Numbered from the stretch's first letter, positions 268 through 50,521 are shown. The stretch: DNA of 64,000 bases from Thermoanaerobaculia bacterium (GCA_963816185.1 CAWFJJ010000024.1:128001-192000), one strand, 5' to 3'. Numbers and translations are program-made. Notes: generated by a model from the sequence alone, not told the origin.

Positions 268-1845
268 CTAGTCGTACACGCCGTCGGCGAACCACTCGCC
301 GCCGGCCTCGTCGTGGAAGATGCGGTAAAGGCCTCCGCCCGAAAGCTCCACGTCCCAGTACGCGCGGAAGGCGGGTGCCTCCTGCCACCAGCCCTCCTCG
401 AGGCGCCACGGGCCCGAAGCCACGCGCACGGTGCCGGCCACGTCCAGCGCCGGCCGCCCACCGCCGTCTGCGGAAGCGGGTTCGAGCGCGCGCAGCGAAG
501 AGGGCCGCTCGCCCTCGAGAAGCACCTCGAGCGGCACGGGTGGACGGAGCACGCGAACCGAGAGAAGCCCGCGGCCGGTCTTCGGCGTCTTTCGCGCCGC
601 GGGAGGAGGCGGCGGAGCGAACGGCACGAGGGCGAAGCGCTCGGGGCGATGGCCGTCCACGGCGCTCGGCGCGCCGACGCGCCCGGGCCCGAGCAGCGCG
701 AACAGCTTCGCGAGCGCCGTCGCGAGACGGTCGGGCGAGATCTCGGCCGGCCCGAACAGCGTGAGCTGGCTCTTGCGCGGGGCGTCGGGCTGCGCCGTGA
801 GGGAGAAGCCCGTGACGGCGGCGCCCGGCGGCCGGCCTTCGAGGCCGAGGCGCACGAGCGTGAGAAGCGTCTTCACGTCGCGCGTGGGCGCGGGCAGATC
901 CAGGCTGCGCGTGTCGCAGCCCTCGGGGTCGAGCGTCAGGGAGATGTCCAGCCGCGCGCACCCTACGGCCTCCGCCTCGAGACGCCGCGCGAGGCGTTCG
1001 AGCGCGCTCTCGGCGAGCGCGAGGAATGGCTCGAGCGTGACGAGCGGCCACTCCAGCTCCATGCCTTCCGTGAAGCCCGGCGGCGGCCGGCGCGGTACGA
1101 GGGGGCGCGGGTCGCGCCCGCGCGCGATCTCGTGCAGCGCGTGCCCGCGCGCGCCGAGCCGGCTCGCGACGTCGGCCGCGGGCAGCTTCGCGAGGTCGCC
1201 CACCGAGGAGAGGCCCCAGCGCGCGAGCGTCTCGACGATCTCGGCATCGGGATCCAGCTTCGCGAGCGGCAGCGGTGCGAGAAACGCGGCTTCGCCGCCT
1301 GCGGGGACGGCGACGGGAGAGTCCGGCAGCGTCGCGGCCACGCGCGCGGCGAGCTTGCTCGACGCGAGCCCGCAGCGCGCGGGCAGCGACTCGCGCTTCG
1401 CGGCGGCGATCAGGGTGCGGCCGAGATCGCGCTCGTCGGGAAAAAGGCGCTCGAGGCCGTCCGCGTCGAGGTACACGACGCCGTCACCAGCGTCCTCCAC
1501 GCGCGGCGACACGGTGCCGGCCACGTCGAGAAGCGCCTCCATGGCGGCGCGCTCGCTCTCGGCGTCGCGCGCGCGGGTGAGAAGGTCGGGCACGAGCGCC
1601 CGCGCCTGCGGCAGCGTGAAGCCCGGGCGGATGCCGGCCTTGCGCGCCTTGCGCGTGGCCGCGACCACGTGCGCGGCCGTCCCGTTCCCCTCGCACAGAA
1701 TGACCGCCTCGTCCCGCAGCGCGGGCTCGCTGCGCAGCCGCGCGGCGAGGGGAAACAGCGGCACCACGAGACACGCGAGGCGTGGGGCGGGAACGGGAGA
1801 AGGTTGTTTTTGCTGCTCCCCGAGCACGGACGACGTTCGCTCCAT
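268..1845 (-). CDS. imuB: ImuB-like Y-family DNA polymerase homolog (probably catalytically inactive)
   Basis: N-terminal LACLVVPLFPLAA, AGIRPGFTLPQARAL, SPRVE..GDGVVYLD, LARWGLSSVGDL, C-terminal GPWRLEEGWW..YWDVE..GLYRIF; next to imuA. Confidence 0.85.
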   Translation of the reverse strand: MERTSSVLGEQQKQPSPVPAPRLACLVVPLFPLAARLRSEPALRDEAVILCEGNGTAAHVVAATRKARKAGIRPGFTLPQARALVPDLLTRARDAESERAAMEALLDVAGTVSPRVEDAGDGVVYLDADGLERLFPDERDLGRTLIAAAKRESLPARCGLASSKLAARVAATLPDSPVAVPAGGEAAFLAPLPLAKLDPDAEIVETLARWGLSSVGDLAKLPAADVASRLGARGHALHEIARGRDPRPLVPRRPPPGFTEGMELEWPLVTLEPFLALAESALERLARRLEAEAVGCARLDISLTLDPEGCDTRSLDLPAPTRDVKTLLTLVRLGLEGRPPGAAVTGFSLTAQPDAPRKSQLTLFGPAEISPDRLATALAKLFALLGPGRVGAPSAVDGHRPERFALVPFAPPPPPAARKTPKTGRGLLSVRVLRPPVPLEVLLEGERPSSLRALEPASADGGGRPALDVAGTVRVASGPWRLEEGWWQEAPAFRAYWDVELSGGGLYRIFHDEAGGEWFADGVYD

Positions 1846-1973
1846 GCCTGCTGTGCCCCGCTTTTCATCAGGATGTTTTTCTTAGAAGGTGAATATCCCC
1901 GGCTCCAACACCCTCAGCGCGTGAATGCGGACAACCGGCCTGAAAACGCAACGGCGAAGATTTCTTTCTTCTG

Positions 1974-2118
1974 ATATGCGGCGGCTGCAGTTGCAGCCCT
2001 GGCCGGCCTGATTGGACGCGGGGGGTCCGGGGGCGCCCGAAGGCAAGCCCCCGGAGAGCGCGCGCAAGCGCGCCGCGCAGCGGTCTTCGATCCTTGACAT
2101 CGGTCATTCGGGAAATAC
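1974..2118. repeat. Composite hairpin repeat element, copy 1 (small palindrome, 40-bp GC hairpin, 31-nt spacer, right IR arm)
   Basis: atatgcggcggctgc is shared with 15345 and 24024; 2021-2060 is identical to 50399-50438; ccttgacatcggtcattcgggaaatac is identical to 24124-24150. Confidence 0.85.
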
Positions 2119-2131
2119 ACGTTCCCCACAC

Positions 2132-2968
2132 TCAGCGCCCGAATGCGGACAAATGACCGGAGAACAAAGTGGCATGCTCTCTTTCCTTTTCCTCTCTTTC
2201 TAAGAAAATTTTCTTTCTTTCTTCCTTGCCTGTCTGAATCGCATCCAGCAGGGAAAGATTCAGCAGGCTCGTCTTTTCTTTCATCTTCGCGTCCCGCGTC
2301 TTCTCGAGCACGAGGCGTGAGGACAGGCCGTCGAGGAGCGACACGCTCTGCGGCCAGCGGTCCAAGCACGCGCGGTCCCAGCCCGCCCGCGCCGCATCGG
2401 CCGCGAGCACGATGCGCGCCGCGGTGCCTGTGACGCGGTAGGGCGCGAGGACGAGGAGCGCCGCGTCGTGAAAGCGCGCGCGACGCGCGAGGCGCAGCCA
2501 GACGGCGTCGTCGAAACGCCGCCTGAAGATGCGTGAGAGCCCGAGGTCGAGGACGACGAGCGCGAAGCCCGTCGCGAGGACGGTCTCGGCCGCGGCGAGC
2601 GCGGGTTTCAACCCGCGGGGGCGCAGCCACAGCACCCGCGAGAGCTCGGCGCCGGCGGCGGCCGCGCCCTGCGGGTCGAAGTGGTCGCCGGGATCCACGA
2701 GCGCGGCGGCTTCGCCCGTCTGCGTCGTCGCGGCGAGCGCGGAGAGGGCCACCGAGAAGCGGCCCGAGGACATGCGCCCCGACATCTCCACGAGAGCGCC
2801 GCGGGGCAGCCCGCCTCCCAGCAGCCGGTCCAGTCCCTCGATTCGCGTGGGCAGAAACTCCGGCGCGAACCGTTCGCGCGAAAGTCCGGAGGCGGTGGTC
2901 AGCCGGGCGGCGATCTCTCGAGGTAAGTCAGGCAGGGGCAGCGGGGCGGGAAGAGACAGCGCCGACAC
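2132..2968 (-). CDS. imuA: ImuA/RecA-like protein
   Basis: LPTRIEGLDRLLGGGLPRGALVEMSGRMSSGRFS (degenerate Walker A), AALVDPGDHFDP, LVVLDL. Confidence 0.85.
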   Translation of the reverse strand: MSALSLPAPLPLPDLPREIAARLTTASGLSRERFAPEFLPTRIEGLDRLLGGGLPRGALVEMSGRMSSGRFSVALSALAATTQTGEAAALVDPGDHFDPQGAAAAGAELSRVLWLRPRGLKPALAAAETVLATGFALVVLDLGLSRIFRRRFDDAVWLRLARRARFHDAALLVLAPYRVTGTAARIVLAADAARAGWDRACLDRWPQSVSLLDGLSSRLVLEKTRDAKMKEKTSLLNLSLLDAIQTGKEERKKIFLEREEKEREHATLFSGHLSAFGR

Positions 2969-12700: not shown

Positions 12701-15130
12701 GTGGATTTCCGGAACGCCTCACGCGCCCTGAAAGAGAAGGTGTTGCAGATCACGCGCAACGTCCGGGGACGCGTGTCTCCGGCCCTTCGCGGCCTCACCG
12801 ATCGCCTCCGCCGCGTTCCACATCCCGTGCTCTTCTTCGTCGGAGCCACGGGCGCTCTTTTTTTCGTCGCCGGGATCGTCGTCATCCTCTACTTTTCACA
12901 CGTCGTGTCGCGCACGATGGACGGGCGGCGGTGGTCGCTTCCCACTCGCCTTTATTCGGACGCGTGGGCGGTGCGGCCCGGCGACACGCTTTCGGCCGAC
13001 GACGTGGTCCGGCGCCTCACGCGCCTGCGCTACGTCGAGGTCCCAAAACCGCCGGTTGCCGCGGGGCAATACGCGCGGGTTCACGGACGACTCGCGGTCA
13101 CCCTGAACGCGCGGGAGACCGCCTGGGGCCGAACGCCGGGTATCCCGGCCGAGATGGAATTCTCGGGGCGGCGCGTTGCGGCGCTGAAGCGGGCCGACGA
13201 CGGGACGCCGCTTCCCTACGTCGTGTTCGAGCCGGAGGTCGTGGGCTCCGTCTACGACGAGAAGATGCAGGACCGCACGCTCGTCACGCTCGACCAGGTC
13301 CCTCAGGTGGTGCTCGACGCGATTCTCACGACCGAGGACCGCGACTTCTTCACGCACGGCGGCATCGCGTTCAAGCGACTCGTGGGCGCGGTCCTTCAGG
13401 GCGCGGCGCGCGGGGGCAACGTACGCGGAACCTCCACGCTCACGCAGCAGCTCGTGAAGAACATGTTCCTGACGCCCGAGCGCAAGCTGAAGCGCAAGGC
13501 CGTCGAGGCGCTGATGGCGGTCATCCTCGAGGCGAAATACAGCAAGAAGCAGATCCTCGAAGCGTACTTGAACGAGATCTACCTCGGTCAGCGCGGCTCG
13601 ATCTCGGTCACGGGCGTCGAGGAGGCCTCTCGCTTCTACTTCGGAAAGAGCGTGTCGCGCCTGGACCTCCCGGAGGCCGCGATGCTCGCGGGCCTCATCT
13701 CGTCGCCCGGCAAGTACTCGCCTTACCGAAACCCCGACAACGCCCGCCAACGCCGCGCCCTCGTCCTCAAGGGGATGCTCGAGCAGAAGAAGATCGACAA
13801 GGCGGCCTACGAGGCCGCGCTCCTCGCGCCGCTCACGCGGTCGAAGGGGCCTCCGGCGGGGATCATCGCGCCGCACTTCGTCGACTTCGTCCTCTCCCAG
13901 GCGAAGGAGACGCCCGGGTTCGTGAAGGAGGACGGTCTGTCCGTCTACACGACTCTCGATCCCGACATGCAGCAGGCCGCACAGGCGGCCGTCCTCAAGG
14001 GGCTCGAAGACCTCGAAAAGCGCTACAAGCGCCTTCGGCCGCACGGCGAGGAAGACATGCTCCAGGCCGCCGTCATCGCGCTCGATCCGGCGACGGGCTC
14101 CGTGCGCGCTTTGGTCGGGGGGCGGGACTACCAGGTCAGCCAGTTCAACCGCGTCGTGCAGGCTCGCCGCCAGCCGGGCTCGCTCTTCAAGCCGTTCGTG
14201 TACCTGACGGCGTTCGGGAAGCGCGATCTCCCGAAGCCGATCACGCCCGCCTCGATTTTCGTCGACTCGCCCATCGCGCTCGTGTGGGGCAAGGGTGAGG
14301 ACGAGACATGGTCCCCGAGGAATTATGACGGCGATTTCCGCGGACCGATGACGGCGCGCCAGGCGCTCGAGCAGTCCATCAACATCCCGACGGTGCGCAT
14401 TGCGGTCACGGAGACTTCGCCGGGGCGCACGCTCCTCCCGGACATCGTCGACACCGCTCGGCGCGCCGGGATCACGTCGCCCATGAAGCCTTACCCCTCG
14501 CTCGCCCTGGGCGCGTTCGAGACGAGTCCGATGGAGATCGCGGCCGCCTATTGCATGTTCGCGAACGGCGGTTTCCGCGTTCGGCCGAACGCGCTCCTCG
14601 GCATCGTGAGCTCGAATTCACGGCGTATCGAGAGGAAAGACGAGCCCGTCGTGCGCGGGGCCGATGCCGACGCGGTCTCGATCCTCGACTCGGTGCTGCA
14701 GGGGGTCGTGGACCGAGGCACCGGCGCGTCCGCCCGCCGCCTCGGGGCGCAGGGCATCCTCGCCGGCAAGACCGGCACGACGAACGACGGACGCGACGCC
14801 TGGTTCATCGGCTTCTCGCCGCGCCTTCTCGTGGCCGTCTGGGTCGGTTTCGACGACAACCGCGGCCTGAACCTGTCCGGCTCCTCGGCGGCCCTGCCGA
14901 TCTTCGCCGACTTCGTCCGGCGCCTTCCTTCGCAGTACTTCGAGGTGCCGTTTCCGACGACGCCGGGCATCGTCACGGCTTCCATCGATCCGACGACCGG
15001 CATGCTCGTGACCGAAGAGTGCCCGAAATCGCTCAACGAGGTCTTTCTCGCGGGCACCGCGCCGACGGAGCGTTGCACCGTTCACGGCGGCGTCGGGCCC
15101 GGCCCCGGCATCGCCGACGGAGCTCCATGA
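12701..15130 (+). CDS. Class A penicillin-binding protein (PBP1B-like)
   Basis: TM anchor, UB2H-like region, EDRDF, STLTQQLVKN, RQPGSLFKP, SIN, KTG motifs. Confidence 0.92.
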   Translation: MDFRNASRALKEKVLQITRNVRGRVSPALRGLTDRLRRVPHPVLFFVGATGALFFVAGIVVILYFSHVVSRTMDGRRWSLPTRLYSDAWAVRPGDTLSADDVVRRLTRLRYVEVPKPPVAAGQYARVHGRLAVTLNARETAWGRTPGIPAEMEFSGRRVAALKRADDGTPLPYVVFEPEVVGSVYDEKMQDRTLVTLDQVPQVVLDAILTTEDRDFFTHGGIAFKRLVGAVLQGAARGGNVRGTSTLTQQLVKNMFLTPERKLKRKAVEALMAVILEAKYSKKQILEAYLNEIYLGQRGSISVTGVEEASRFYFGKSVSRLDLPEAAMLAGLISSPGKYSPYRNPDNARQRRALVLKGMLEQKKIDKAAYEAALLAPLTRSKGPPAGIIAPHFVDFVLSQAKETPGFVKEDGLSVYTTLDPDMQQAAQAAVLKGLEDLEKRYKRLRPHGEEDMLQAAVIALDPATGSVRALVGGRDYQVSQFNRVVQARRQPGSLFKPFVYLTAFGKRDLPKPITPASIFVDSPIALVWGKGEDETWSPRNYDGDFRGPMTARQALEQSINIPTVRIAVTETSPGRTLLPDIVDTARRAGITSPMKPYPSLALGAFETSPMEIAAAYCMFANGGFRVRPNALLGIVSSNSRRIERKDEPVVRGADADAVSILDSVLQGVVDRGTGASARRLGAQGILAGKTGTTNDGRDAWFIGFSPRLLVAVWVGFDDNRGLNLSGSSAALPIFADFVRRLPSQYFEVPFPTTPGIVTASIDPTTGMLVTEECPKSLNEVFLAGTAPTERCTVHGGVGPGPGIADGAP

Positions 15131-16179
15131 TGCTCACGCTGCCGCCGATGGACCTCGGGCTCGTGGTGCGCAGCCACGGCTGGTACGACTTGCCTCCATT
15201 CGAATGGGACGCGAAAGAAAAGACCCTGGGATTGATTTTCTTAGAAGGAGAATGCCCCGTACGAGTCGAGGTGGCGGAGCAGCCGGGCGGACTGGTTGCT
15301 CAGGCTCGGGCCATCGCGCCTTCGGCGCGGGAGACCGATTTCTCATATGCGGCGGCTGCTGTGCAGCCGCCGATAGCAGCAAATCTGTCCTCGGATGGCG
15401 GGAGTCAAGGGCGCGCTGCGCGCGCCGCGAAGCGGTCGAAGACCCTTGACACCCGCCTTCCGAGGAAGATCTCTTTCTCTTTCAAAGCAAATCTCTCTTC
15501 GGACGTTCCATCCGAGGCCTCGGTTCGTCGTGCGCTGGAACGGGTCCTCGATCTGAAAGCGGATCTTTCTTCTTTCCACTCCCTCTGCGCCGGGGACCCG
15601 CGCTTCGCGTGGGTCGCCCGGCGCGGGGCGGGGCGGATCCTGCGCGCGCCGACTCTGTTCGAGGACGCCGTAAAGGTCCTCGCGACGACGAACTGCACCT
15701 GGGGTCTGACGAAGCTCATGGTGAACAATCTGATCGAACGCTTCGATCGGGGCGGGGCATTTCCGGATGCGCCCTTCGTCGCGGGCCTTTCCGCGCGCTC
15801 TCTCGCCGCTGCGAAATGGGGTTACCGTGCGCCTTATCTCACCGCGTTCGCGCGGCGCGTCGCCTCGGGAAAGCTGGATCTCGCGCGCTGGGAGGATCCG
15901 GACCTTCCCGACGAGGAGGTCGAGAAGGAGATCCGCGCGGAGAAAGGCTTCGGCCCTTATGCCGCCGACACGCTGGGGCGGCTTCTCGGGCGGCACCGCA
16001 AGCTGGGCCTCGACGCCTGGTCTCGCAAGAAGGTCGCGACCCTGAGGTTTCGGGGCCGCGCCGTGAAGGACGCGCGCGTCGCGCGCTTCTACGCGTCGTT
16101 CGGACCGCACGCGGGCCTCGCGTTCTGGCTCGACATGACGCACGACTGGCACGAGGAGAAGGAGACCGTGTGGCCCTGA
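15127..16179 (+). CDS. HhH-GPD DNA glycosylase (AlkA/Ogg-like) with an in-frame repeat insertion
   Basis: SHGW.DLPPF, GRILRAPTLFEDAVKVLATTNCTW, WGYRA, KGFGPYAA. Confidence 0.8.
   Translation: MMLTLPPMDLGLVVRSHGWYDLPPFEWDAKEKTLGLIFLEGECPVRVEVAEQPGGLVAQARAIAPSARETDFSYAAAAVQPPIAANLSSDGGSQGRAARAAKRSKTLDTRLPRKISFSFKANLSSDVPSEASVRRALERVLDLKADLSSFHSLCAGDPRFAWVARRGAGRILRAPTLFEDAVKVLATTNCTWGLTKLMVNNLIERFDRGGAFPDAPFVAGLSARSLAAAKWGYRAPYLTAFARRVASGKLDLARWEDPDLPDEEVEKEIRAEKGFGPYAADTLGRLLGRHRKLGLDAWSRKKVATLRFRGRAVKDARVARFYASFGPHAGLAFWLDMTHDWHEEKETVWP
15345..15466. repeat. Composite hairpin repeat element, copy 2 (in frame inside the glycosylase)
   Basis: 24-bp IR 15388-15411 / 15443-15466 (22 of 24 paired), 31-nt spacer, preceded by gcggcggctgctgtgcagccgccg. 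Confidence 0.85.
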
Positions 16180-16219
16180 GCGCCTCGTCTGCGAAGATTC
16201 GGTCAGAGAGCGACACGGC

Positions 16220-16963
16220 GTGAAGAGGGTGATCCTCGTCGGCGCGACCGACGGCCTCGGGAAGGCCCTCGCCGAGGTGTATGCCGCGCGCGGCTTCTGG
16301 GTGACCATCCTCGGGCGCTCGGAGAAGAAGCTCGACGCGCTCGTCGCGGATCTGAGGCGGCGCTTCCCGGTTGCGACGGTCAACGGGGTCGTCTGCGACG
16401 TCGCGGACGCGGCGCGGCTCGAGCCGGCGTTCCGCGAGGCCCTCGCCGTCACCGGGCACTGTGACCTCTTCCTCTACAACGCCGGCGTCCTGCACCACAG
16501 CGACGGCGTCACGAGCGTCCCTGCCCTCGACGCCGACACGATGGAGGTCAACGCGGTCGCGGCCGTGAGGCTGCTCGGCCTCGCGGCGAACTGGTTTCGG
16601 GTCGCCGGGCGCGGGCAGATCGCGGCCATCTCGTCCATCGCGGGCGACCGGGGGCGCAAGGGGAATCCCGCGTACAACGCTTCCAAGGCGGCTCTTTCGA
16701 CTTTTCTCGAAGGCCTTCGCAACCGGCTTGCGCCGTTCGGCGTGACCGTCTCCACCGTGAAGCCCGGCTACGTCGGGACGCGGATGACGGCGGGGAAGCC
16801 GGGAATGTTCTGGGTCGCGCCGGCCGACGAGGCCGCGCGGATCATCGCGGTCCGCCTCGAGAAGCGGCACGAGGTCTTCTACGTCTACAGGCGCTGGGCG
16901 CTGCTCGGCTTCGCGATGCGGCACGTGCCCCGCTTCGTGTTCAAGAGGTTCGGCCCGGCGTGA
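16220..16963 (+). CDS. SDR oxidoreductase (DprE2-like)
   Basis: GATDGLG, ISSIAGDRGR, YNASK, VKPGYVGT. Confidence 0.85.
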   Translation: MKRVILVGATDGLGKALAEVYAARGFWVTILGRSEKKLDALVADLRRRFPVATVNGVVCDVADAARLEPAFREALAVTGHCDLFLYNAGVLHHSDGVTSVPALDADTMEVNAVAAVRLLGLAANWFRVAGRGQIAAISSIAGDRGRKGNPAYNASKAALSTFLEGLRNRLAPFGVTVSTVKPGYVGTRMTAGKPGMFWVAPADEAARIIAVRLEKRHEVFYVYRRWALLGFAMRHVPRFVFKRFGPA

Positions 16964-18267
16964 GCGCGCTTCCTCCGCCCGAGCGCCTCGAGGGCTTCGG
17001 CCTCTACAACGTCTCCGTGTCGCCCGTCTTCCGGCCCGCGTCCCTCGACGCGCTTCGCGACGCGCTCGCCACCGGCGCGTCGAACGGGTCGAAGATAGTG
17101 TTCCGCGGTGCAGGGCGCTCGTATGGCGACGCTTCGACGAATCCCGCGGGTCCCGTCGTGGAGATGACGGGACTGAACGCGATCGCCGGCTTCGACGAGA
17201 CCTCGGGGGTCGTCCGGGCCGGGGCAGGACTCACGTTCGGGGACTTGTGGAAGTGGTCGATCCCCCACGGGTTCTGGCCGCCTGTCGTGACCGGAACGAT
17301 GCACGTCACGCTCGGCGGCGCCGTCGCGATGAACGTGCATGGGAAGAACGGTTGGAAGAAAGGGACGATCGGAGACCACGTCGAGAGCGTCTCGATCCTG
17401 CGCGACGGTGGCCGCGTCGAGGAGATCGCACGCGGCACGCGCGCCTTCGAGGACGTCGTCGGCAACTGGCGGCTTCCCGACCCGATCGTCGAGGTCTCGC
17501 TGAAGCTGAAAAGGGTCGCGACCGGCTACCTCGACGTGGAAGCCTTCGCGACCCCGAACCTGGCCGCGACGCTCGCGGGTCTCGACGGCGCAAAGGAAGA
17601 CTGGGATTACGTCGTCGGCTGGATGGACTGCTGGGCGAGGGGTACGAGCCTCGGCCGGAGCGTGCTCCACGTCGCGAACGAGCAACCTGCGAAAGAGGGA
17701 GAGCCGCGCGGGCTGAGCGTCGAGGAGCAGGTCGCGGACATCCGTATGGGGCCTCTGCCCGTCCCGGTTCTTCTCCTCGGGCTCAAACTAACGGCCGCGG
17801 GGCCCCAGATGCGGTTCGTGAACGCCGGTAAGTACGCCGCATCGCTTCTGCGCGGACGGGCGCACTACCGGCAGTCGCTCGTGGCGTACTCGTTTCTCCT
17901 CGACTACCTGCCCGGCTGGAACGAAGCGTATCGGCCCGGCGGGTTCATCCAGTATCAGCTCTTCGTGCCGAAAGACGCCGCCGAAGCGGCGTTCCGGACC
18001 GCGCTGCAGCTCCAGCACGAGATGGGCGTCGTCTCGTCCCTCGCCGTCGTGAAGCGCCACCGGGCGGATCGTTTTGCGCGCGGCTACGCGCTCGACGGCT
18101 TCTCCCTCGCGCTGGACTTCCCGGTCACGCGGAGAAACGCGAGCCGGCTCATCGCACTGGCCCGCGCGTTCGACGCCCTTCTTCTCGCGTGCGGCGGGCA
18201 CACCTACAAGGCGAAGGACTGCGTCGGGAGCGTCGAGCGCCTCGCTGCGGCGCGTGGAGAGGCATGA
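16960..18267 (+). CDS. FAD-binding oxidoreductase (DprE1-like)
   Basis: RGAGRSYGDA, VTLGGAVAMNVHGKN, GFIQYQ, LALDFP, YKAKD. Confidence 0.85.
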   Translation: MSALPPPERLEGFGLYNVSVSPVFRPASLDALRDALATGASNGSKIVFRGAGRSYGDASTNPAGPVVEMTGLNAIAGFDETSGVVRAGAGLTFGDLWKWSIPHGFWPPVVTGTMHVTLGGAVAMNVHGKNGWKKGTIGDHVESVSILRDGGRVEEIARGTRAFEDVVGNWRLPDPIVEVSLKLKRVATGYLDVEAFATPNLAATLAGLDGAKEDWDYVVGWMDCWARGTSLGRSVLHVANEQPAKEGEPRGLSVEEQVADIRMGPLPVPVLLLGLKLTAAGPQMRFVNAGKYAASLLRGRAHYRQSLVAYSFLLDYLPGWNEAYRPGGFIQYQLFVPKDAAEAAFRTALQLQHEMGVVSSLAVVKRHRADRFARGYALDGFSLALDFPVTRRNASRLIALARAFDALLLACGGHTYKAKDCVGSVERLAAARGEA

Positions 18268-18692
18268 GAAGGCCGGCGCGCGCTCTGCTTCTTGCGAGCG
18301 TTCTCGCGGTCGTTCTCGAGCTCGGAGGATGCCAGTCGAACGAGTCGCCGACGTCGCCGCGGTCCTGCATTCCGCTCACCGGCCAGTACGCGGGCGTCTT
18401 CACGGATACGTGCGGGCTTTCGAAGACCGAGGACGTCACGCTCTTTCAGACCGACTGTACCGTCGTCGCGGAGTTCCCGGGCGTCGGCAGCCTGCAGGGC
18501 ACCGTCTCGGGCGGGACGCTCGTCTTCGCGATCGGCTTCAGCGGATTCTCGCCCTGTGGCGGCTCGGCGAGCGGCTCGGCCGCGCTGACGCCTTCCGGCG
18601 ACCTCACGGGACACTACAGTGGAGAGACGACCGGCACCGGCACGACCTGCTGCGGAAACGTGACGGGCGCGTTCACCCTCACGCGGCGGTGA
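18264..18692 (+). CDS. Hypothetical Cys-containing lipoprotein
   Basis: Signal peptide with LGGC; Thr/Gly-rich beta-type sequence. Confidence 0.65.
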   Translation: MRRPARALLLASVLAVVLELGGCQSNESPTSPRSCIPLTGQYAGVFTDTCGLSKTEDVTLFQTDCTVVAEFPGVGSLQGTVSGGTLVFAIGFSGFSPCGGSASGSAALTPSGDLTGHYSGETTGTGTTCCGNVTGAFTLTRR

Positions 18693-18699
18693 TCAGATT

Positions 18700-19248
18700 T
18701 CAGGTTCTTTGTTCCGGGTCGGATCTCACGAACTCGTCCGTGTCCGACGACACGATGATCGCCATGCCGCCTTCCGCGCTGTAGGCGGCCGTCTCGGTCG
18801 TTCCGGCCTCGGATCGGCAATAGTCGCCGGCGCGAAGCATGACCCCGTTCAGGAGCACGGAGCCGGCGACGATGAAGACCTCCTCCGTGGCGCCGTGGCG
18901 GTGCGCGGGGTACGTCGAGCCGGGAGCGAAGCGGAGGAGGCGCGTCGTGTAGCCGCGCGCGTCGTCCCGGTGAAGGACCTTGTAGTCGAGGCCCGGCAAG
19001 GGGGCCGGAATCCAGCCGGTGTCGGCGACGAGCACGGCGGTGACCCCGGGCAGCACGGTGCGGCCGCCGGGCGGCAGGGAGGCCGGGCTCGCGGGCTTCT
19101 CCGACGCGATCCTGTCGAGGATGCGCTTCTTCAGGTGGTGCGGCGGGGGCGCCGAGAACGAATACGCGAGCGCGTCGACGACGTCGCCGAATTCACGTCT
19201 CAGCTCGAGCCAATCGCGGTCGTTCGTATCGTCGTTCACGTCGTCCAT
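18700..19248 (-). CDS. ChrR-like cupin anti-sigma factor
   Basis: PPPHHLKKRIL anti-sigma segment; LLRFAPGSTYPAHRH..EEVFIVAG; follows an ECF sigma gene. Confidence 0.8.
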   Translation of the reverse strand: MDDVNDDTNDRDWLELRREFGDVVDALAYSFSAPPPHHLKKRILDRIASEKPASPASLPPGGRTVLPGVTAVLVADTGWIPAPLPGLDYKVLHRDDARGYTTRLLRFAPGSTYPAHRHGATEEVFIVAGSVLLNGVMLRAGDYCRSEAGTTETAAYSAEGGMAIIVSSDTDEFVRSDPEQRT

Positions 19249-19822
19249 CCTTCGGCACGAGGCCCGAGCGTTTGGCGCAGGCGCTGGAGCGCGAGCCGGA
19301 TCCGTGATTTCGCGGTGCCGAGCGGCTGGGCGAGCCTCTCGGAGATCTCCGTGTGCGTGAGCCCCTGAAAATACGCGAGCTCGATGACCTCGCGTTGCTC
19401 GGCCGGCAGACATGCGAGCGCGGCGCGCACGGTGGAGGCGCGCTGGGCGAGAGCGGAGCCGGACTCCGGGTCGATGAGAGTCGACGCGAGATCGCGCACC
19501 TGATCGAGATCCTCCTCGTGCCGGCAGACCCCTCCCCGCGCACGAAGCCGATCGATGGCACGCGAGCGCGCGAGCATCAGAAGCCAGGCGATCGGCTCAC
19601 CCCGGCCGGCGTCGAATCGGGCCGCCTGCCGCCACGCCTGCGTGTAAACGTCAAGAGTCACCTCCTCGGCATCTGCCGGATCGCGCAGCACCTTGAGGCA
19701 GATTCCGTAGACGTACTTGCTCGAGAGGTCGTAGAGATCCGACAGCGCGGCCGTGTCCCCGCGGCGATCCGGCGCATGAGCTCCGCATGGTCCGGGCGCA
19801 CCTCGCCCTGCCTCGGCGCCAC
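19236..19822 (-). CDS. ECF RNA polymerase sigma factor (SigK-like), frameshifted near the 5' end
   Basis: DAEEVTLDVY..AW, WLLMLARSRAIDRLR, LAYFQGLTHTEI..LGTAKSRIR. Confidence 0.85.
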
Positions 19823-19954
19823 GCTCAAGAGCGGTCTCGCATATTGACAGGGATTATGCCGGGCCCGGCGCTCGCGAGGCATCGGCAAAGCATCGGCCAT
19901 ACGGACAATACGGTGGCCGGCCGAAACCGGATCACCGCGGGAGCGCGGTCGCGG

Positions 19955-20281
19955 CTAGTTCTTCCCCGGGTCCTTCAGATCCTCCCCCTTCACGGTCGCG
20001 GTCGCATCGTGCCCGAAGCCCCCTGAAACCTTGATCGTGAGATCGGTCTTCGCGGGAGGCGCGAAGTCGAACACTCCCTTCGCGTTCGTGCGCCCGGTGA
20101 GAAGGACCTTTCCCTTTGCGTCCGAAACCTGGACCGGCACGTCGCCCACCGGCTCGCCGTCGCTGAAGTACGCTTCGACGTGGACCCGGCCCTTCACGAC
20201 CTCCGCCCAGACGGCGACGTCGTGGGCGAGGGCGGTCCCGGTGGCCGCGAGGAGCAACGCGAGAACGAAAGCACGTTTCAT
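19955..20281 (-). CDS. Small periplasmic metal-uptake accessory protein (NikL/FpvJ-like)
   Basis: Signal peptide followed by His; YFSDG, G..GH motif; last gene of the ABC operon. Confidence 0.6.
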   Translation of the reverse strand: MKRAFVLALLLAATGTALAHDVAVWAEVVKGRVHVEAYFSDGEPVGDVPVQVSDAKGKVLLTGRTNAKGVFDFAPPAKTDLTIKVSGGFGHDATATVKGEDLKDPGKN

Positions 20282-21162
20282 GAGATGACCTCCCGGCGCC
20301 CGAAAAGGGGACGCCACGCGAGCGTGAGATAGAAGAGGGCGGTCGAGACGAGCGCGATCGCGCCGCCCGTCGGAACGGGGAGAAACCCGGAGAGAAACAG
20401 CCCTCCCGCGGCGGCGAGCGTGGAAAGGGCGACGCTCGCGAAGAAGAACTGGCGCAGGTTGGAGGCCACGTTCTGCGCCGCGGCGGCGGGCACGACGATC
20501 ATGACGAGGACGAGCAGCGCTCCCACGAGCTTCAGGCCGGCGACGACGACGGCCGTCGCGAGCGTCACGAAGACGTAGTCGAGAAGCGCGGGCCGTTTCC
20601 CGCGCGCGGCCGCCAGCGACGGGCTCAGGCTCGCGAGCACGAGGTCGTTGAACAGGAATCCTCCGGCGAGCGCGGCGAGGGCCGCCGTCGCGAGCAGGAT
20701 CGCGAGGTCCGCATCGCGCAGCGTGAGGAGGCTTCCGAAGAGCGTCCCCTCGATCTGGTGGATGTCGAAGCGTTTCGAGACGAGCGCCACCATGAGAACG
20801 CCGAGGCCCAGCGTCTGCGCGAGGAAGAGACCCGTGACGGTGTCGGACGGGACACGGCCGCGATGCTGGACGAACGTGACGAGGATCGCCGAGGCGAAGC
20901 AGAAGCCGTAGAGGCCGGCCCAGGTGGATCCGGGCGGCTCGCCGAGGAGAAGGCCGAGAGCGGTTCCCGTCATCGCGGCGTTCCCGATCGCCTGCGTGAA
21001 GAACGACATCCGCCTCGCCACGACGAGGGTGCCGAGCCCGCCGAAGAGCGGCCCGAGAAGGAGCGCGCCGAGGAGCCCGCGGATCATGAACGTGTGGACG
21101 AAGATCGCGGGCAGGAACCCCGCGCGCGCCCAGCCGGCCACGGCCTCGTAGGCGCCGCTCAC
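20278..21162 (-). CDS. Metal ABC transporter permease (FpvE-like)
   Basis: GWARAGFLP..GPLFGGLGTLVV..LFGSLLT..LVGALLV..PAAAA. Confidence 0.85.
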   Translation of the reverse strand: MSGAYEAVAGWARAGFLPAIFVHTFMIRGLLGALLLGPLFGGLGTLVVARRMSFFTQAIGNAAMTGTALGLLLGEPPGSTWAGLYGFCFASAILVTFVQHRGRVPSDTVTGLFLAQTLGLGVLMVALVSKRFDIHQIEGTLFGSLLTLRDADLAILLATAALAALAGGFLFNDLVLASLSPSLAAARGKRPALLDYVFVTLATAVVVAGLKLVGALLVLVMIVVPAAAAQNVASNLRQFFFASVALSTLAAAGGLFLSGFLPVPTGGAIALVSTALFYLTLAWRPLFGRREVIS

Positions 21163-21860
21163 CGCGCGTTCCCTTCTGCGACGAGATCCGATTCGGAAAG
21201 CCGTCCCGGATCGCCGGTCGACACGATTTTCCGGTTCAGGACGGTGACGCGCGCGCAGAGCCGCGCGAGGAGGCCCCGGTCGTGCTCGACGAGAAGAATG
21301 GCCGCTCCTTGCCGCGCAAGGCGCGTGAGAAGCGCTTCGATGAGGCGCGTCCCGTCCTCGTCCACATGGCTCGCCGGCTCGTCGAGGACCAGAAGCTTCG
21401 GCTGCGGAACGAGCGCCTGCGCGAGAAGGACGCGGCGCAGCTCGCCGCCGGAAAGCTCGGGAAGGCGCCGCGAGGCGAGGGCGTCGGTTCCCGTCTCGGC
21501 GAGCGCGGAGGCGATGCGCGCGCGCAGCGCCTGAGGGCGCCGCCCGAGGACGGGAGCGCGGCGGAGCGCGAGCGCGAGGAAGTCGGAGACGGAGACGGGC
21601 AGCGCGGGATCGAGGTCGAGGCTCTGCGGCACGTAGCCGATCGGCTCGCCGGGAGAGAGCGCGAGTCGGATCGTGCCCGTGAACGGCACGCGGCCGAGAA
21701 GGCATTGCAGCAGCGTCGTCTTTCCGGCGCCGTTCGGACCGGTGAGCCCGTGGACTTCGCCCGCGAAGACGTCGAGGTCGACGCCGTCGAGCGCGAGGTC
21801 GCGCCCGCGCGCCGCGCGGAGCCCGCGGATCGCCACGACCGGGGCCGCCGGGACGTTCAC
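21159..21860 (-). CDS. Metal ABC transporter ATP-binding protein
   Basis: GPNGAGKT, IGYVPQ, LSGGE, LDEP, VEHD. Confidence 0.92.
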   Translation of the reverse strand: MNVPAAPVVAIRGLRAARGRDLALDGVDLDVFAGEVHGLTGPNGAGKTTLLQCLLGRVPFTGTIRLALSPGEPIGYVPQSLDLDPALPVSVSDFLALALRRAPVLGRRPQALRARIASALAETGTDALASRRLPELSGGELRRVLLAQALVPQPKLLVLDEPASHVDEDGTRLIEALLTRLARQGAAILLVEHDRGLLARLCARVTVLNRKIVSTGDPGRLSESDLVAEGNAR

Positions 21861-22746
21861 GGGCGGCGCCCCGCGACGGCCCGGCGGCGTCGACGATCGC
21901 GTCGAGGTTCGCCTTCGTATCGCGCTCGAATCGGTCTTTCGAATCGTCGCCGCCCGTCATGTGCGTGAGCCGGAAGAGGCGGCACCCGGTCTCCTTCTCG
22001 ATCGTGTCGACGTACCGGCCGGCGAGACCCATTTCCATGAAGAGCACGTTCACGCGCGCGGCCTTGATGCGGGCGATCGTGTCGGCGAGCTGCTTCGCCG
22101 AGGGCTCCAGGCCGTGCCGGGGCTGGACGACCGCCTCGACGGTCAGGCCGAGATCCGAGAAGAGATACGCGTAGCCGTCGTGGACCGTGGCGATGTGGAC
22201 GGCGGAAAGATCGAGCCCGTCGAGGCGCGCGAGCGCCTCCGCGAGAAGGTGCCGCAGCCTTTTCGTGTACGCCCTCGCGTTCTCCTCGAAGAGGGACGCG
22301 TCCTCGGGGTCGAGTCGGGAGAGGTCTTTGGCGAGCGTCTGGATCTGCTGCGACGCCGCGAGAACGGAGAGGAAGGAATGGGGGTTCACGCCGCCCGAGG
22401 CGCTGCGAAGGAGCGGGACGCCGCGGTTCGGGTCGAGGCGCGTGAGGCCGTCTCTTCCCGCGGCCTTCAGCATCGGCTCGAGGAAGGCGTCGTGGCCGAG
22501 CCCGTTCACGACGACGGCGTCCAGCGACTCGATCGCCGCGAGGTCGTCGGGACGCGGCTGGTACGAGTGCGGGTCCGCGCCGGCGGGCACGACGGGCACG
22601 ACGGTGACGGCGTCTCCGCCCACGTTCGCGACCCACGAGTAATAGGGGTTGAGCGTGACCCCGATGCGCAGCGGATGCGCCGGCGAGCCGGCGGCGGGGA
22701 GCGCCGCGAGACAGGCGAACGCGAGCGGTGCGGCGAGGGCTTTCAA
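21857..22746 (-). CDS. Metal ABC transporter substrate-binding protein (FpvC-like); indel near the 3' end
   Basis: LRIGVTLNPYYSWV, DPHSYQP, NPHSF, HDGYAY, HGLEPS. Confidence 0.88.
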
Positions 22747-23339
22747 CGTTGTCCTCCGGCGCCGGCTTCGCCGTCGAGCGCGACGAGCTGATACCAGCCG
22801 TCCGTCGCGGGGAAGGCGCCGGGCACGCCGTGCCGCCCTTCAGGATCCAGACCTCGGCGGCGACGCGCGGCCGGGGGCGAGCGGCGCGCGTGGGGATGCC
22901 CTGGTCGAGGCCGGCCATGGCCCTCTCGGAGAGGCGAAGCAGGAAAGCCGTCCGCCGGCCCTTCGGGTCCAGCCCCGCGTAGTCCGCGGACGCGCCGTCC
23001 GCGCGGCGTTTCCAATCGAGGCCGCGCGCTCCGGCGGGGAGGAGCGCAGGCGCGAAGGGCGGGATCTCGTCCGCGGCGAGAGCCGGGATCTCCGGCCACG
23101 CTCCGCTCTTCCTCTCTGGTCCGTGATGGCGTCGACCGAGACGAGGAGCGCCTGGAAAATGGTCTGGTCCGTCCCCGCGAGGACCGAGGTCGCCGCGGGC
23201 GCGCCGGAGCGGTCGAGGGTCTTCACGCGCACAGCCCCGGCGACGAGAAGATCGCCAGCGCCGCGCCGACCCACGCGGCTTCCCGGGCGGCGCTCGGCGG
23301 GCGGACGACGCGTCCCGGCGCGTCCACGAGGTGCATCAT
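22743..23339 (-). CDS. FpvK/DUF6162-like membrane-anchored protein (frameshifted)
   Basis: Manual translation MMHLVDAPGRVVRPPSAAREAAWV.. then WPEIPALAADEIPPF..EVWI..GWYQL across frames; resemblance from memory. Confidence 0.55.
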
Positions 23340-24172
23340 CGCGCCCGCCCCGCGCCGAACCGGACCCGCAGTGTGGCGCTCGTGACCTCGGACGGCGGCT
23401 CCGCCGGGTCGGACGGGTATTCGGTCAGCCTCCTGCTGCGATCCGTGGCGGGCACGTCGGCGGCGAGGAGAGCCGCGCCGTTCCCCGCCGCCGCGACGAC
23501 TTCCTTCCAGCCCGCGCGGCCTTCGAAGTTCGTGTCGGAGAACGTCACCGCCGCGACGCCTTCCTTCGAGACGATCGCCTCGAGGTCCAGCGTCAGTCGC
23601 GCGGTGGGGAGGTCCGCGACTCCGGGCGCGAACTCGAGCGCGCTCCTGACGATGGTGAGCGCGACGCGCGCGCCTCCAACGGTGAGAACGAGGCCCGGAA
23701 GAAAGCGCGCGGCGAGGTCGTCCCGCATCTTCGCGAGCGCCTCCCCCCGCGGCGCGCTCGTCAGGCTCGAATCCGACAGCGCCTTCTGCGTCGGGATCTC
23801 CGCGAAATCGATCACGTGCGTCACGTCGATGCCCCCCGCGCGCGGCGACAGCCGCGTCCAGCGGTTCACGGAGAAATTGCCCATGGGATGGGAGAGAGAT
23901 TTTGCTGAAGAGAAGAGAAGAAAGAGGAAGACAAATACAGAGAAAGATTTTCTTAGAAGGGAAGAGGGGAACGGGGCTGTTCCTGATGCAGCCGCCGCGA
24001 GAAGAGAAACGCTTCCATTTCTTATATGCGGCGGCTGCTGATGCGGCCGCCGATAGATGGAAATCTGTTCCCGAATGACCGATGTCAAGGGTCGGCGACC
24101 GCTGCGCGGCGCGCGAAGCGCGCCCTTGACATCGGTCATTCGGGAAATACGGTCCCGCTCTCTCTTATTCAT
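23336..24172 (-). CDS. Periplasmic domain like that of Ni/Co-transporter-associated proteins (HPMGNFSVN); N-terminus built from repeat element
   Basis: HPMGNFSVN, DFAEIPT, DTNFEGRAGWKEVV, SRRLTEYP. Confidence 0.7.
   Translation of the reverse strand: MNKRERDRISRMTDVKGALRAPRSGRRPLTSVIREQISIYRRPHQQPPHIRNGSVSLLAAAASGTAPFPSSLLRKSFSVFVFLFLLFSSAKSLSHPMGNFSVNRWTRLSPRAGGIDVTHVIDFAEIPTQKALSDSSLTSAPRGEALAKMRDDLAARFLPGLVLTVGGARVALTIVRSALEFAPGVADLPTARLTLDLEAIVSKEGVAAVTFSDTNFEGRAGWKEVVAAAGNGAALLAADVPATDRSRRLTEYPSDPAEPPSEVTSATLRVRFGAGRAR
24024..24150. repeat. Composite hairpin repeat element, copy 3
   Basis: Perfect 24-bp IR TTCCCGAATGACCGATGTCAAGGG (24068-24091) / 24123-24146 with a 31-nt spacer. Confidence 0.9.
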
Positions 24173-25422
24173 TAGCAGAAATCTCTTTCTTCGTCTCTCC
24201 GTCTATCTCTTTCTCGATCTCCTCCTTCATCCTTCTCGCTTCGTCTGCGTAGAGCACGTGGAAGCGCGGATCGATCTCGAGCGCGCGCGTCAAATGGGCG
24301 AGCGCGGCCTGGCGATCGCCCGCGGCGCGTGCGATCGCGCCGGCGTGGAACTCGAAGAGGGGGTCGATCGTGCCCATCGCGAGGGCTTTCGCCATCGGCA
24401 GGGCGGCGTCCCGGGCGCGACCGGCCCGGTAGAGGCACCAGGCGTAGGCGTCGTATCCGCCGATGTCTTTGCGGGTCTCGAGCTCCTTCGACGTCATCTC
24501 GACGGCGCGTCTCGCGTCGCCGTGGTCCGCGAGATAGAGCGCGAGAAAGCGGTGGACCTTTCGCTCCTCGGCGGGCATGAGCGCCTCGAGCGTTTTCACC
24601 GTCGCCTTCGCGCGCTCTTCTCCGGCGGCGTCTCCCATGGCGTGCCGGTAGTCGACGAGGGCGGCTGCAACGGTGAACTCGGGGACGAACTCGAAGGAGC
24701 GTTCGGCGAGCCGCGTGGCCGGCTCCCAGAGTCCCTTGCGCGCCGCGATCTCCGCCGCGGCGGCGAGCGCAGGAGCGTGGTTCGGGACGCGGAGGAGGGC
24801 TTCGACGAGGCGCCCTTCCGCATCCTCGTACCGGTTCATCTTCAGGAGGATCCGCGCGGCGCGCGCGCGGCACCACGCGTAACCCTCGAGGTCGGTAGGC
24901 AGGGCGGCGTTCGCGGCAAGATCCATCGCGGCGAGCGCGCCGGCCAGGTCGCCCGCGACGTCCTTCGCGAGCGCGGCGCGGCTGTACGAGGCCGTGCAGG
25001 GCTTCGCGCTAACGAATCGGTCGTAAGCCGCGAAAGCATCCGGGTAGCGGCCCAGGTCGAAGAACGCGTCCCCGAGCGCGCCGTCCAGCTCCGGGTCGTC
25101 CGGCCGGTCCGCTTTCAGCGCCGCGGCCTCGCGCGCCAGCTCCTCGAAACGGTGGTGGGGAAGGAGGAGCCTCAGCCGGAACTTGAGGAGGCCGAAGTCG
25201 CCGGGCGAAGCGAGAAGGCCTTTCGCCACGGCCGCCTCGGAAGCGGCGAGATCGGCGCGATCCAGCGTCCGGCGGTAGCGCGCGTAGCGCTCTTCCGCGA
25301 GAGCGAGCGGGCCGGGCTCTCTCCGGGGGTTCGGAAGCCCGCGCCGCAAGGGCGATGAGAAGAGCGGCGGCCGCCGCTCTTGCGGGAAGAAGGAGCGAAA
25401 GCCGCCGCCGGAGAGCATTCAC
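24165..25422 (-). CDS. Secreted tetratricopeptide repeat protein (indel near the 5' end)
   Basis: Multiple TPRs (LGDAFFDLGRY..A, DAYAWCLYRAG, FHAGAI); downstream of DUF4331. Confidence 0.8.
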
Positions 25423-27245: not shown

Positions 27246-27344
27246 GGAAGCGCAAGGGGCCCGGCGGCCCTCCTGGTCTTCAAAACCAGCGTGCCCGTTC
27301 CGAGAGGGGCGGCGGGTGGGTTCGACCCCCACACGCTTCCGCCA
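27246..27344 (+). tRNA. selC: tRNA-Sec (anticodon TCA)
   Basis: GGAAGCG...CGCTTCC-G-CCA acceptor, CTGGT-CTTCAAA-ACCAG anticodon arm, long variable arm, GTGGG-TTCGACC-CCCAC T arm; TAGAAT -10 just upstream. Confidence 0.92.
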
Positions 27345-50385: not shown

Positions 50386-50398
50386 GCAGCTTCGGCCC

Positions 50399-50438
50399 GG
50401 GGGTCCGGGGGCGCCCGAAGGCAAGCCCCCGGAGAGCG
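50399..50438. repeat. 40-bp REP-like GC hairpin, identical to 2021-2060
   Basis: GGGGGTCCGGGGGCGCCCGAAGGCAAGCCCCCGGAGAGCG; TCCGGGGGC/GCCCCCGGA stem. Confidence 0.88.
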
Positions 50439-50521
50439 ATGGGGCACATCCTGAAGCTGGTCTAGAGGCGCAGGGGGAGGGGTCCGGGGATCTTAGAAGG
50501 AAGGGCCTGTGCGAGCGGCCG

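Follow-up and report, generated by a model that had tools for sequence, protein, structure and literature searches.

Introduction

In its way of life, the element reported here is closest to the repetitive extragenic palindromic (REP) sequences and their derivatives. One account defines REP palindromes by a GTAG or CGTC tetranucleotide at one end (PMC3733652), and the REPINs of another account have conserved arms (the REPs), whereas no two of their spacers are alike (PMC3337134). We analyzed 64,000 nucleotides from a Thermoanaerobaculia bacterium (GCA_963816185.1 CAWFJJ010000024.1:128001-192000; "the window" denotes this whole stretch), in which two hairpins, copies A and B, and a half copy are members of one family of non-coding interspersed repeats of about 135 nt. 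A sequence-only reading of the window had drawn attention to these hairpins and had proposed a REP/REPIN-like or MITE-like (miniature inverted-repeat transposable element) unit of conserved structure, or a recombination site with an invertible core.

The repeat has multiplied between genes in one group of uncultured soil Acidobacteria. Its conserved tip has repeatedly been inverted in place, and the most likely cause is a known error of DNA copying rather than a genetic switch. New are the family itself, the reversal of its conservation pattern, the tip of three hairpins and how often flips occur in place; searches of the literature on repeats of Thermoanaerobaculia and Acidobacteriota and on centers found in both orientations (supplementary material not covered) turned up no description of the repeat. 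Genomes, contigs and loci are designated below by G, C and L numbers.

Results

A polar unit with two hairpins

Re-reading the letters of the window confirmed the coordinates and the arm and spacer lengths of both hairpins (Table 1). As the sequence-only reading had stated, there are 7 differences between the 24-nt left arms of copies A and B, six of them mirrored in the right arm. The seventh is the A.A mismatch within copy A, whose arms have two mismatches in 24 nt. The spacer of copy B, when reverse-complemented, differs from that of copy A at only 4 of 31 positions, all inside three 3-nt loops, so that the near-inversion claimed for the spacer was also correct. A repeat search of the window aligned copies A and B as reverse complements (71 nt, 80%) and found the half copy (2068-2114) to be complementary to copy B (24068-24114; 47 nt, 94%), in agreement with the copy A orientation that had been assigned to it at 2060-2114. 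The left flank that the copies had been said to share is itself a hairpin, HP1, found three times by the same search (at 1969, 15340 and 24019) and truncated at 1969-1998. The pattern GTCAAGGG-N25-37-CCCTTGAC matched twice in the window and never in 100 shuffles, and the unit recurs 46 times in the genome; chance is therefore excluded. The sequencing evidence consisted of assembled contigs from 20 listed runs of 10 studies, none of them an RNA run, each with at most 0.24 of the sampled words. Loose contig ends mark the borders of the repeat at 24018/24019, 15337 and 15467.

In the host genome (5.09 Mb in 30 contigs, 67% G+C, 94.9% complete), the 46 copies were found by a core search tolerating 8 substitutions. 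A strict search for the box, the short conserved inner part of the arms, gave 44 matches, 42 of them with a conserved core. The unit has a fixed polarity and a length of about 135 nt: HP1 is followed by an A-rich linker, by a second hairpin (HP2) and often by the sequence TAYSS (TATCC, TACGG). HP1 consists of TTCTnATAT-G, a 10-bp stem (CGGCGGCTGC / GCAGCCGCCG) around a TGAT loop, and ATAG, and the 3' end of the linker reads GAAAATCT. HP2 is an 81-nt foldback with a 17-bp outer stem that is variable but paired, a 7-8-bp box (GTCAAGG/CCTTGAC) and a conserved 33-nt tip. The tip in turn is composed of three mini-hairpins, GCGCGC-nnn-GCGCGC CGC-nnn-GCG GTC-nnn-GAC.

HP1 is rarely found on its own. 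In the genome, 40 of 42 strict HP1 matches adjoin a core, as do 98 of the 108 strand-hits of an nhmmer profile of HP1; the remaining hits are three complete solo HP1s, two partial ones and a doubtful one. The HP1 sequence is conserved, with coordinated changes in a minority of the 97 aligned copies: one C-G pair is lost on both sides in 19, and a T-A pair is changed to C-G in 7. Both hairpins give strong folds whichever strand is taken and whether DNA or RNA is modeled (z from -7.3 to -10.2).

Conservation of the tip was scored on the unbiased set of 46 copies, the large alignment having been gathered with a pattern that fixes the stems of the mini-hairpins. Stem positions of the tip are each preserved in 44 or more of the 46 copies, and variation is greatest at positions 7-9, 19-21 and 28-30, mainly in the middle base of each loop and throughout loop 3. 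Among 149 copies, 121 have TNC as loop 1 and 125 have GNA as loop 2; loop 3 is mostly GNN. Within the genus, sub-families show paired changes in the tip (1-33 from G-C to A-T, 26-32 from T-A to C-G, 4-12 from C-G to T-A). A pairing of loop 1 with loop 3 was also considered and rejected, as 22 copies have fully complementary loops and 24.4±3.5 are found in shuffles.

Paired changes in the arms

The covariation claimed from the window copies holds on a set of 104 copies (103 distinct; 24 arm pairs, 2472 cells). The arm cells are paired in 90% of cases, compared with 31-53% when the partner is slid by 1-3 columns. Changes on both sides are seen in 14 of the 24 arm pairs, and the number of double-changed cells, 318, was not reached in any of 500 shuffles (120±17). 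The position next to the box is unpaired in 57 of 103 copies.

Paired changes also occur in place, but most of the family-wide signal stems from older sub-family splits. Thirteen comparisons of orthologous loci cover 312 cells, of which 260 are unchanged, 37 are changed on one side, 8 are changed on both sides with pairing kept, and 7 are changed on both sides with pairing broken.

The tip is inverted at orthologous loci

Both orientations of the tip relative to HP1 are common. Among 149 copies, 89 have what we call the A-first orientation and 46 the flipped one, while 9 copies have HP1-like hairpins on both sides and 5 have none.

Inversion is also seen at single loci. Nine loci of this genome could be used for 14 cross-genome comparisons, and in 13 of these HP1 lies on the same genomic side. 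The tip is inverted in 7 of the 13 same-side comparisons (6 loci), with the locus and flanks unchanged and the arms complementary. Copy B of the window is one such case, as locus L046 has the same flanks and the same HP1 side, but the opposite tip. At three loci, both states of the tip are found among other genomes. In the fourteenth comparison, HP1 and the tail have switched sides around a foldback whose absolute orientation is unchanged. ATCA, the reverse complement of the majority HP1 loop TGAT, was found by eye in none of the 97 aligned HP1 loops.

The mismatch next to the box mostly moves with the tip. In the frame of the tip, A.A is found 38 times and T.T 14 times (Fisher p = 0.0017 for the association with orientation, copies not being independent). 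At locus C25:315341, in contrast, the mismatch reads T..T in both states of the tip. Because the mismatch mostly travels with the tip and yet stays in place at this locus, the end-points of the inversion vary within the arms.

Of the proposal of a recombination site with an invertible core, the core is supported, as it inverts even at orthologous loci, and the site is not supported: no recombinase is linked to the repeat, the inverted segment measures only 33 nt and its end-points look variable. In contigs of four sequencing runs, joints to opposite strands were recorded at 24057-24146, with a short side covering only the repeated HP1; most simply, they come from other copies of the repeat that have the opposite orientation, or from folding back during assembly.

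Uneven gain and loss among close relatives

A scan of one genome per species gave at least 103 loci, nearly all in metagenome-assembled genomes titled Thermoanaerobaculia or Acidobacteriota; one genome among those listed is titled Acidithiobacillales. In an even sampling of the class, matches were confined to 8 of 151 genomes, which belong to a single family. A covariance model for the foldback, built from 104 copies, matched 33 of 57 other genomes of this family, as well as 1 of 56 and 0 of 7 genomes in two sister families. Within the genus, copy numbers are 45 (this genome), 49, 41, 29, 22, 19, 12, 11, 9, 4 and 4; six further genomes have 2 copies, two have 1, and 10 of 29 have none. The covariance model also revealed a second burst in another genus, with at least 38 copies in G224.

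Copies are gained or lost between close relatives. Of three loci in one 19-kb stretch, two have a copy in common with the closest relative (G163) only, and the third copy is private; none of the three is present in G009, G088, G162 or G019. A copy in another genome, at a place where a fuzzy search recognized none in this one, was seen in 17 further comparisons (one of these is the chimeric half copy of the window). At one locus, HP1 stands alone in this genome, and another genome has HP1 and, directly after its ATAG, linker, HP2 and tail. Therefore, HP2 and the linker can be gained or lost beside HP1.

Clean borders are few. The unit replaces other hairpins or AT-motif segments (see below) in mosaic gaps. 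Eight comparisons with loci lacking the element in one genome showed no target duplication, the gaps being rearranged mosaics. Since the repeat has been multiplied and lost unevenly among close relatives, its behavior is that of selfish or mobile DNA and not that of a signal tied to particular genes.

Low-copy homologs in other genera

In four other genera, the covariance model matched a low-copy locus of the same plan, with 1-6 matches per genome (both strands counted). The plan comprises a 10-bp hairpin, ATAG, a short linker and a long foldback with a box and three mini-hairpins; a second foldback follows about 98 nt beyond the first. The box is GTCAAGG/CCTTGAC in 4 of these loci and GTCCAGG/CCTGGAC in 4. 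Mini-hairpin 1 has CGAGC/GCTCG in place of CGCGC/GCGCG in 8 of 8 loci, and mini-hairpin 3 has CC/GG in place of TC/GA. These paired changes support the proposed pairs.

The low-copy locus lies inside a region of about 1.7 kb (loci L161-L169, for example L163:630-2390) that is 85-95% identical between most of eight genomes from four genera, one of which shares just a 130-nt stretch. The region has no clear coding signal; nine of its open reading frames (ORFs) were compared with Pfam and the region with Rfam, and neither gave a match. Resemblance to short repeats in the genus of the window is limited to its two ends, and one such end-like repeat adjoins a gene similar to Y1 transposases in G048.

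Mobilizing enzymes and known families

No mobilizing enzyme was found. The sequence-only reading had suggested a search for a REP-associated tyrosine transposase (RAYT) or IS200/IS605 enzyme. This genome, 94.9% complete, gave 0 matches to Y1 HUH transposases (RAYT, PF01797), and thus no TnpA (Y1) that could act in trans on an IS200/IS605-type element. Y1 transposases were found in 4 of 29 congeners, G165, G159, G151 and G048, which have 4, 0, 0 and 2 copies of the repeat, and in none of the genomes with 9-49 copies. A Y2 (IS91-type) transposase was rejected as the mobilizer, as it is present in just 1 of 29 genomes. Genes between copy pairs 0.9-3.4 kb apart, as read from the N-terminal sequence of their products, included no transposase or recombinase (thrS, scpA/scpB, adenine-deaminase-like, Rrf2-type regulator, queC-like, uvrA-like); no genome-wide recombinase search was made.

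The IS110 family occurs in 13 of 29 genomes, with 11 matches in this one. It was rejected as well: its ends, flanks and targets are unrelated to the repeat, and several high-copy genomes lack it, an absence weakened by their fragmented assemblies. A parent insertion sequence with ends matching the repeat was not found among the IS110 copies, the only ones inspected. As an observation on this family itself, six copies of 1.47 kb are about 99% identical (C2:6234, C24:337853, C24:734084, C25:393243, C25:608617, C25:610599), and AGCGyAGCGAG directly follows five of the six, which suggests a specific target.

The unit has no terminal inverted repeats, the left end being TTCTnATAT-HP1 and the right end the HP2 arm with TAYSS. 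A GTAG/CGTC tag is also absent: HP1 is bordered by ATAT(G) and ATAG, and HP2 by AAATCTn and TAY. Of the REP/REPIN proposal, the description as a dispersed, structure-conserved intergenic repeat is supported, whereas membership in the REP/RAYT system is not supported, given the absence of a linked Y1 transposase and of the tag, and the reversed conservation. A classical MITE is not supported either, as the two ends are unlike each other and no target duplication was seen in the eight comparisons, with their mosaic gaps.

TTGACA on the right arms, which the sequence-only reading had singled out, is just part of the palindromic box. It faces outward in 86 and inward in 94 of 135 copies, that is, about equally often, and promoter prediction called 0 sites around copies A and B and no -10 element. 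At the element, Rfam 15 gave no match at the gathering score, and only generic hairpin (miRNA) matches below threshold. The sole Rfam match in the window is a selenocysteine tRNA (tRNA-Sec) gene at 27246-27340, with 60.5 bits for a gathering score of 47.

Genomic context and window features

Copy A is flanked by a class A penicillin-binding protein gene (12701-15130) and by an operon for short-chain dehydrogenase, and copy B just past the stop of a gene for a tetratricopeptide repeat (TPR) protein (24165-25418, minus strand). The half copy separates an imuA-like (RecA-like) gene from an imuB-like one (Y-family polymerase).

Table 1. Parts of the three repeat copies in the window.
Feature	Position	Strand	Description
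Copy A, HP1	15340..15376	+	TTCTCATAT-G, 10-bp stem CGGCGGCTGC / GCAGCCGCCG, loop TGT, then ATAG
Copy A, A-rich linker	15377..15387	+	CAGCAAATCTG
Copy A, HP2 foldback	15388..15466	+	Outer arms variable; 24-nt arms TCCTCGGATGGCGGGAGTCAAGGG / CCCTTGACACCCGCCTTCCGAGGA; 31-nt spacer
Copy A, box	GTCAAGG 15404-15410 / CCTTGAC 15444-15450	+	
Copy A, 33-nt tip	15411-15443	+	Majority (A-first) orientation relative to HP1
Copy B, HP1	24019..24056	+	TTCTTATAT-G-CGGCGGCTGC-TGAT-GCGGCCGCCG-ATAG
Copy B, linker	24057..24067	+	ATGGAAATCTG
Copy B, HP2 foldback	24068..24146	+	Perfect 24-nt arms, 31-nt spacer
Copy B, box	24084-24090 / 24124-24130	+	
Copy B, tip	24091-24123	+	Flipped orientation
Copy B, distal TAYSS tail	24148..24153	+	TACGGT; such a tail follows many copies
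Chimeric copy, HP1	1969..1998	+	3' half truncated
Chimeric copy, GC-hairpin insert	2021..2060	+	Unrelated 40-nt repeat replacing linker, left arm and left box
Chimeric copy, tip and right side	2060..2115	+	32-nt tip (A-first), CCTTGAC 2092-2098, right arm identical to that of copy B

The unit has no orientation preference towards neighboring genes, as judged for 41 copies from rough gene calls based on G+C at third codon positions. On the HP1 side, the end of the adjoining gene is the 3' end for 25 copies and the 5' end for 16; on the far side, it is the 5' end for 22 copies and the 3' end for 19. Outside confident ORF calls lie 39 of the 46 copies. By position within unverified ORF limits, five of the other seven are in the 5' part of a longest-ORF call, one is near the 3' end and one is mid-ORF. 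Several long ORF calls cross units, and such units break short-read assemblies and may mislead ORF callers.

The proposed tie to clusters of an AT-rich motif was borne out, with copies found in AT-motif gaps more often than average. The motif lies within 150 nt of 21 of 46 copies, and anywhere in 202 of 1442 gaps of at least 120 nt, a rough contrast, as the windows are not like-for-like. The motif itself, the palindromic TTCTTnGAA / TTCnAAGAA, has 713 sites genome-wide, compared with about 22 expected from base composition; half of them are intergenic (23955-23975 and 24170-24190 are examples in the window), and it may be a promoter or leader element.

The half copy is a chimera that is also present at C25:499836 and C30:540025. 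It occupies the 287-nt spacing of the pair of imuA-like (RecA fold) and imuB-like (Y-family polymerase) genes (268-2968, minus strand). The GC hairpin inserted in it belongs to a second small repeat of 40 nt, seen in the window at 50399-50438 (region 50352-50465) and at 2021-2060, and elsewhere at C29:69272, with six genome-wide matches and a diverged seventh at C30:540025. At 50399-50438, it directly follows the stop codon of a gene. Past the hairpin lies a re-coded second copy of the last 8 codons and stop of that gene, both reading MGHILKLV*, with AT-rich codons before the hairpin and GC-rich codons after it. A similar near-duplicate flanks the copy at C29:69272. The 40-nt hairpin looks like an insertion carrying or duplicating the 3' end of its target gene.

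Two further observations concern the window as a whole. A 45-kb contig, C14 (G000), contains a 98%-identical, reverse-oriented second version of part of C24:142600-152300 (window 14600-24300), including both hairpin copies with the same tip orientations; it reflects either strain heterogeneity in the bin or a recent duplication. On the minus strand at 20278-22746, a single 822-aa ORF joins a ZnuA-type periplasmic metal-binding domain and an ABC-3 permease domain.

Discussion

Proposed template switching in a selfish repeat

The observations are probably best explained by a selfish intergenic repeat, similar to REPs or bacterial interspersed mosaic elements (BIMEs) and spread by a putative mobilizer, with template switching or recombination from arm to arm making both the paired changes and the tolerated flips. 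Copies would be made by a trans-acting enzyme that recognizes the conserved tip and HP1 and that is not a RAYT; recognition of these parts, by such an enzyme or by a host protein, could keep the box and tip conserved. In HP2, DNA polymerase may at times switch template between the arms, or the arms may recombine. A switch would copy one arm onto the other, so that the arms stay complementary and "compensatory" changes arise, and it would invert the segment between the switch points, so that the tip flips. The outer 17-bp stem would only need to pair.

As template switching inverts what lies between switch points, the flips can be seen as tolerated accidents, both forms of the tip going on to multiply. 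The process accounts for the paired arm changes and the flipped spacer alike, and it fits the variable end-points and the lack of a linked recombinase. Its products are described in published accounts: multi-base compensatory changes and loop inversions (PMC8794818), arm homogenization and spacer inversion (PMC8604942), and correction of imperfect inverted repeats in bacteria (PMC5941160).

Several points weigh against this explanation. The two orientations are found in a ratio of 89:46, not in the ratio of about 50:50 expected from fast neutral flipping (binomial p = 0.0003, copies not being independent). One-sided changes (37) outnumber paired changes at orthologous loci, so that the covariation comes mostly from sub-family splits, and family-wide it could equally reflect selection for pairing. 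Template switching leaves the conservation of box and tip unexplained, for which a function or a recognition role is needed, nor does it explain how copies spread. No mobilizing enzyme, no insertion with clean borders and no target duplication was found, and the word "mobile" is therefore based only on copy number and on presence or absence. Finally, the low-copy homologous foldbacks in other genera hint at a function beyond selfish spread.

Alternative explanations

Such a function is at the center of another explanation, in which the repeat has been co-opted as a structural or docking site in DNA, with a host protein on box and tip or a cruciform. Gyrase, IHF and Pol I bind BIMEs. A docking role is compatible with template switching in a selfish repeat, and would agree with the low-copy foldbacks and with the far better conservation of tip and box than of the arms. 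The orientation of the tip would then not matter, and both orientations indeed appear to work and to multiply, since orientation goes with the arm sub-family (as judged by eye). In addition, loops TNC and GNA with a free middle base amount, on either one strand or its complement, to GNA triloops with a closing C-G pair, and accounts of such triloops describe them as very stable DNA mini-hairpins (PMC3201870, PMC13037366). On the other hand, the repeat is absent from 10 of 29 congeners and limited to one or two copies in seven others, so that no general host function can depend on it, and no binding protein is known. We regard a docking site as an unlikely explanation.

A family of small structured RNAs, or a cis-acting RNA element, appears less likely still. 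Stabilization of mRNA ends has been proposed for REPs, and selection for RNA pairing would give the strong covariation and the stable folds. Some copies begin about 7-25 nt from a stop codon (by eye), and mismatches of the G.T type outnumber those of the A.C type on the top strand (88 versus 52 in the frame of HP1, copies not being independent). The unit is, however, found in either direction relative to the flanking genes, its tip is replaced by the complement in a third of copies, and copy number in congeners ranges from 0 to 49. With TNC as loop 1 and GNA as loop 2, no single strand has the favored loop at both places. Neither an Rfam match nor a promoter call supports an RNA. "Compensatory covariation" in palindromic DNA repeats need not mean RNA structure.

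Alternatively, an enzyme for which the foldback is a substrate in single-stranded or hairpin form might make the flips, for example by a nick at the base of the stem and hairpin transfer, with the same enzyme copying the element. The terminal repeats of parvoviruses assume their flip and flop forms in this way, and HP2 likewise is a long stem capped by small internal palindromes in two orientations. Asymmetric ends without visible target duplication, and a conserved tip as a possible recognition site, would also be in agreement. We nevertheless consider such an enzyme very unlikely: Y1 HUH transposases are absent here and confined to four congeners, none with more than 4 copies, Y2 transposases occur in 1 of 29 genomes, the six-copy IS110-family element has unrelated ends and targets, and the genes between close copy pairs are housekeeping genes by their N-termini. 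Moreover, transfer of the whole hairpin predicts that each arm mismatch is mirrored after a flip, and where orthologous loci have a mismatch beside the box, none was found by eye to be exactly mirrored.

In a more far-reaching variant, to which we give hardly any credence, an undescribed non-RAYT enzyme acting on folded single-stranded DNA recognizes the conserved box and three-hairpin tip, copies the element and inverts the foldback by processing the hairpin, and the foldback pair in the 1.7-kb region is the source or autonomous form; if true, this would be a chromosomal bacterial counterpart of the flip and flop terminal hairpins of parvoviruses. A programmed switch, in which a site-specific recombinase acting at the GTCAAGG/CCTTGAC boxes turns the tip and so alters expression of a neighbor, is similarly improbable: inverted boxes do bracket the invertible segment, both states occur at the same locus in different species and TTGAC(A) lies within the box, but only 33 bp separate the boxes (much less than the spacing that known invertases need for synapsis), promoter prediction gave neither a promoter nor a -10 element, TTGACA faces both ways, the end-points vary, and no recombinase gene was seen between the close pairs examined, a genome-wide recombinase search not having been made.

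Comparison with known systems

Few interspersed repeats are known from Acidobacteriota; this well-defined family is an addition to them, and provides a natural data set for measuring the rate at which palindromes are flipped and repaired by template switching in bacteria. With template switching as modeled by Ripley, it shares both products, paired arm changes and a reverse-complemented spacer, as well as in-place inversion with variable end-points. Template switching is a process and not an element family, however, and in the present repeat a structured spacer has the considerable length of 33 nt, and the frequency of flips (7 of 13 orthologous comparisons) is unusual.

Other systems share single features. 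The terminal repeats of parvoviruses such as adeno-associated virus (AAV) appear similar, with a long stem capped by small internal palindromes and two orientations. They are the ends of linear virus genomes and are inverted as a whole by Rep nicking, whereas here internal chromosomal copies are involved, no Rep-like enzyme was found and mismatches are inconsistently mirrored. Invertons also have inverted repeats, but here the segment is 33 nt long and no promoter was called. Like bacterial MITEs (for example Correia elements), the repeat is small, non-autonomous and intergenic and was multiplied in bursts; like IS200/IS605 derivatives, it has unlike ends, hairpins and no visible target duplication. 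It differs from these two groups in that no terminal inverted repeats, no TnpA and, among the IS110 copies inspected, no matching parent insertion sequence were found.

REP, REPIN and BIME repeats are the closest in lifestyle, even though the features that define them are not seen here: no RAYT tracks the repeat, and the GTAG/CGTC tag is absent. Contrary to the pattern of REPINs, conservation lies in the tip and variation in the outer arms, and the unit includes a second, polar hairpin, HP1. The likeness lies in short GC-rich hairpin repeats that are intergenic and built as mosaic modules, that vary in copy number between relatives and that keep the complementarity of their hairpins.

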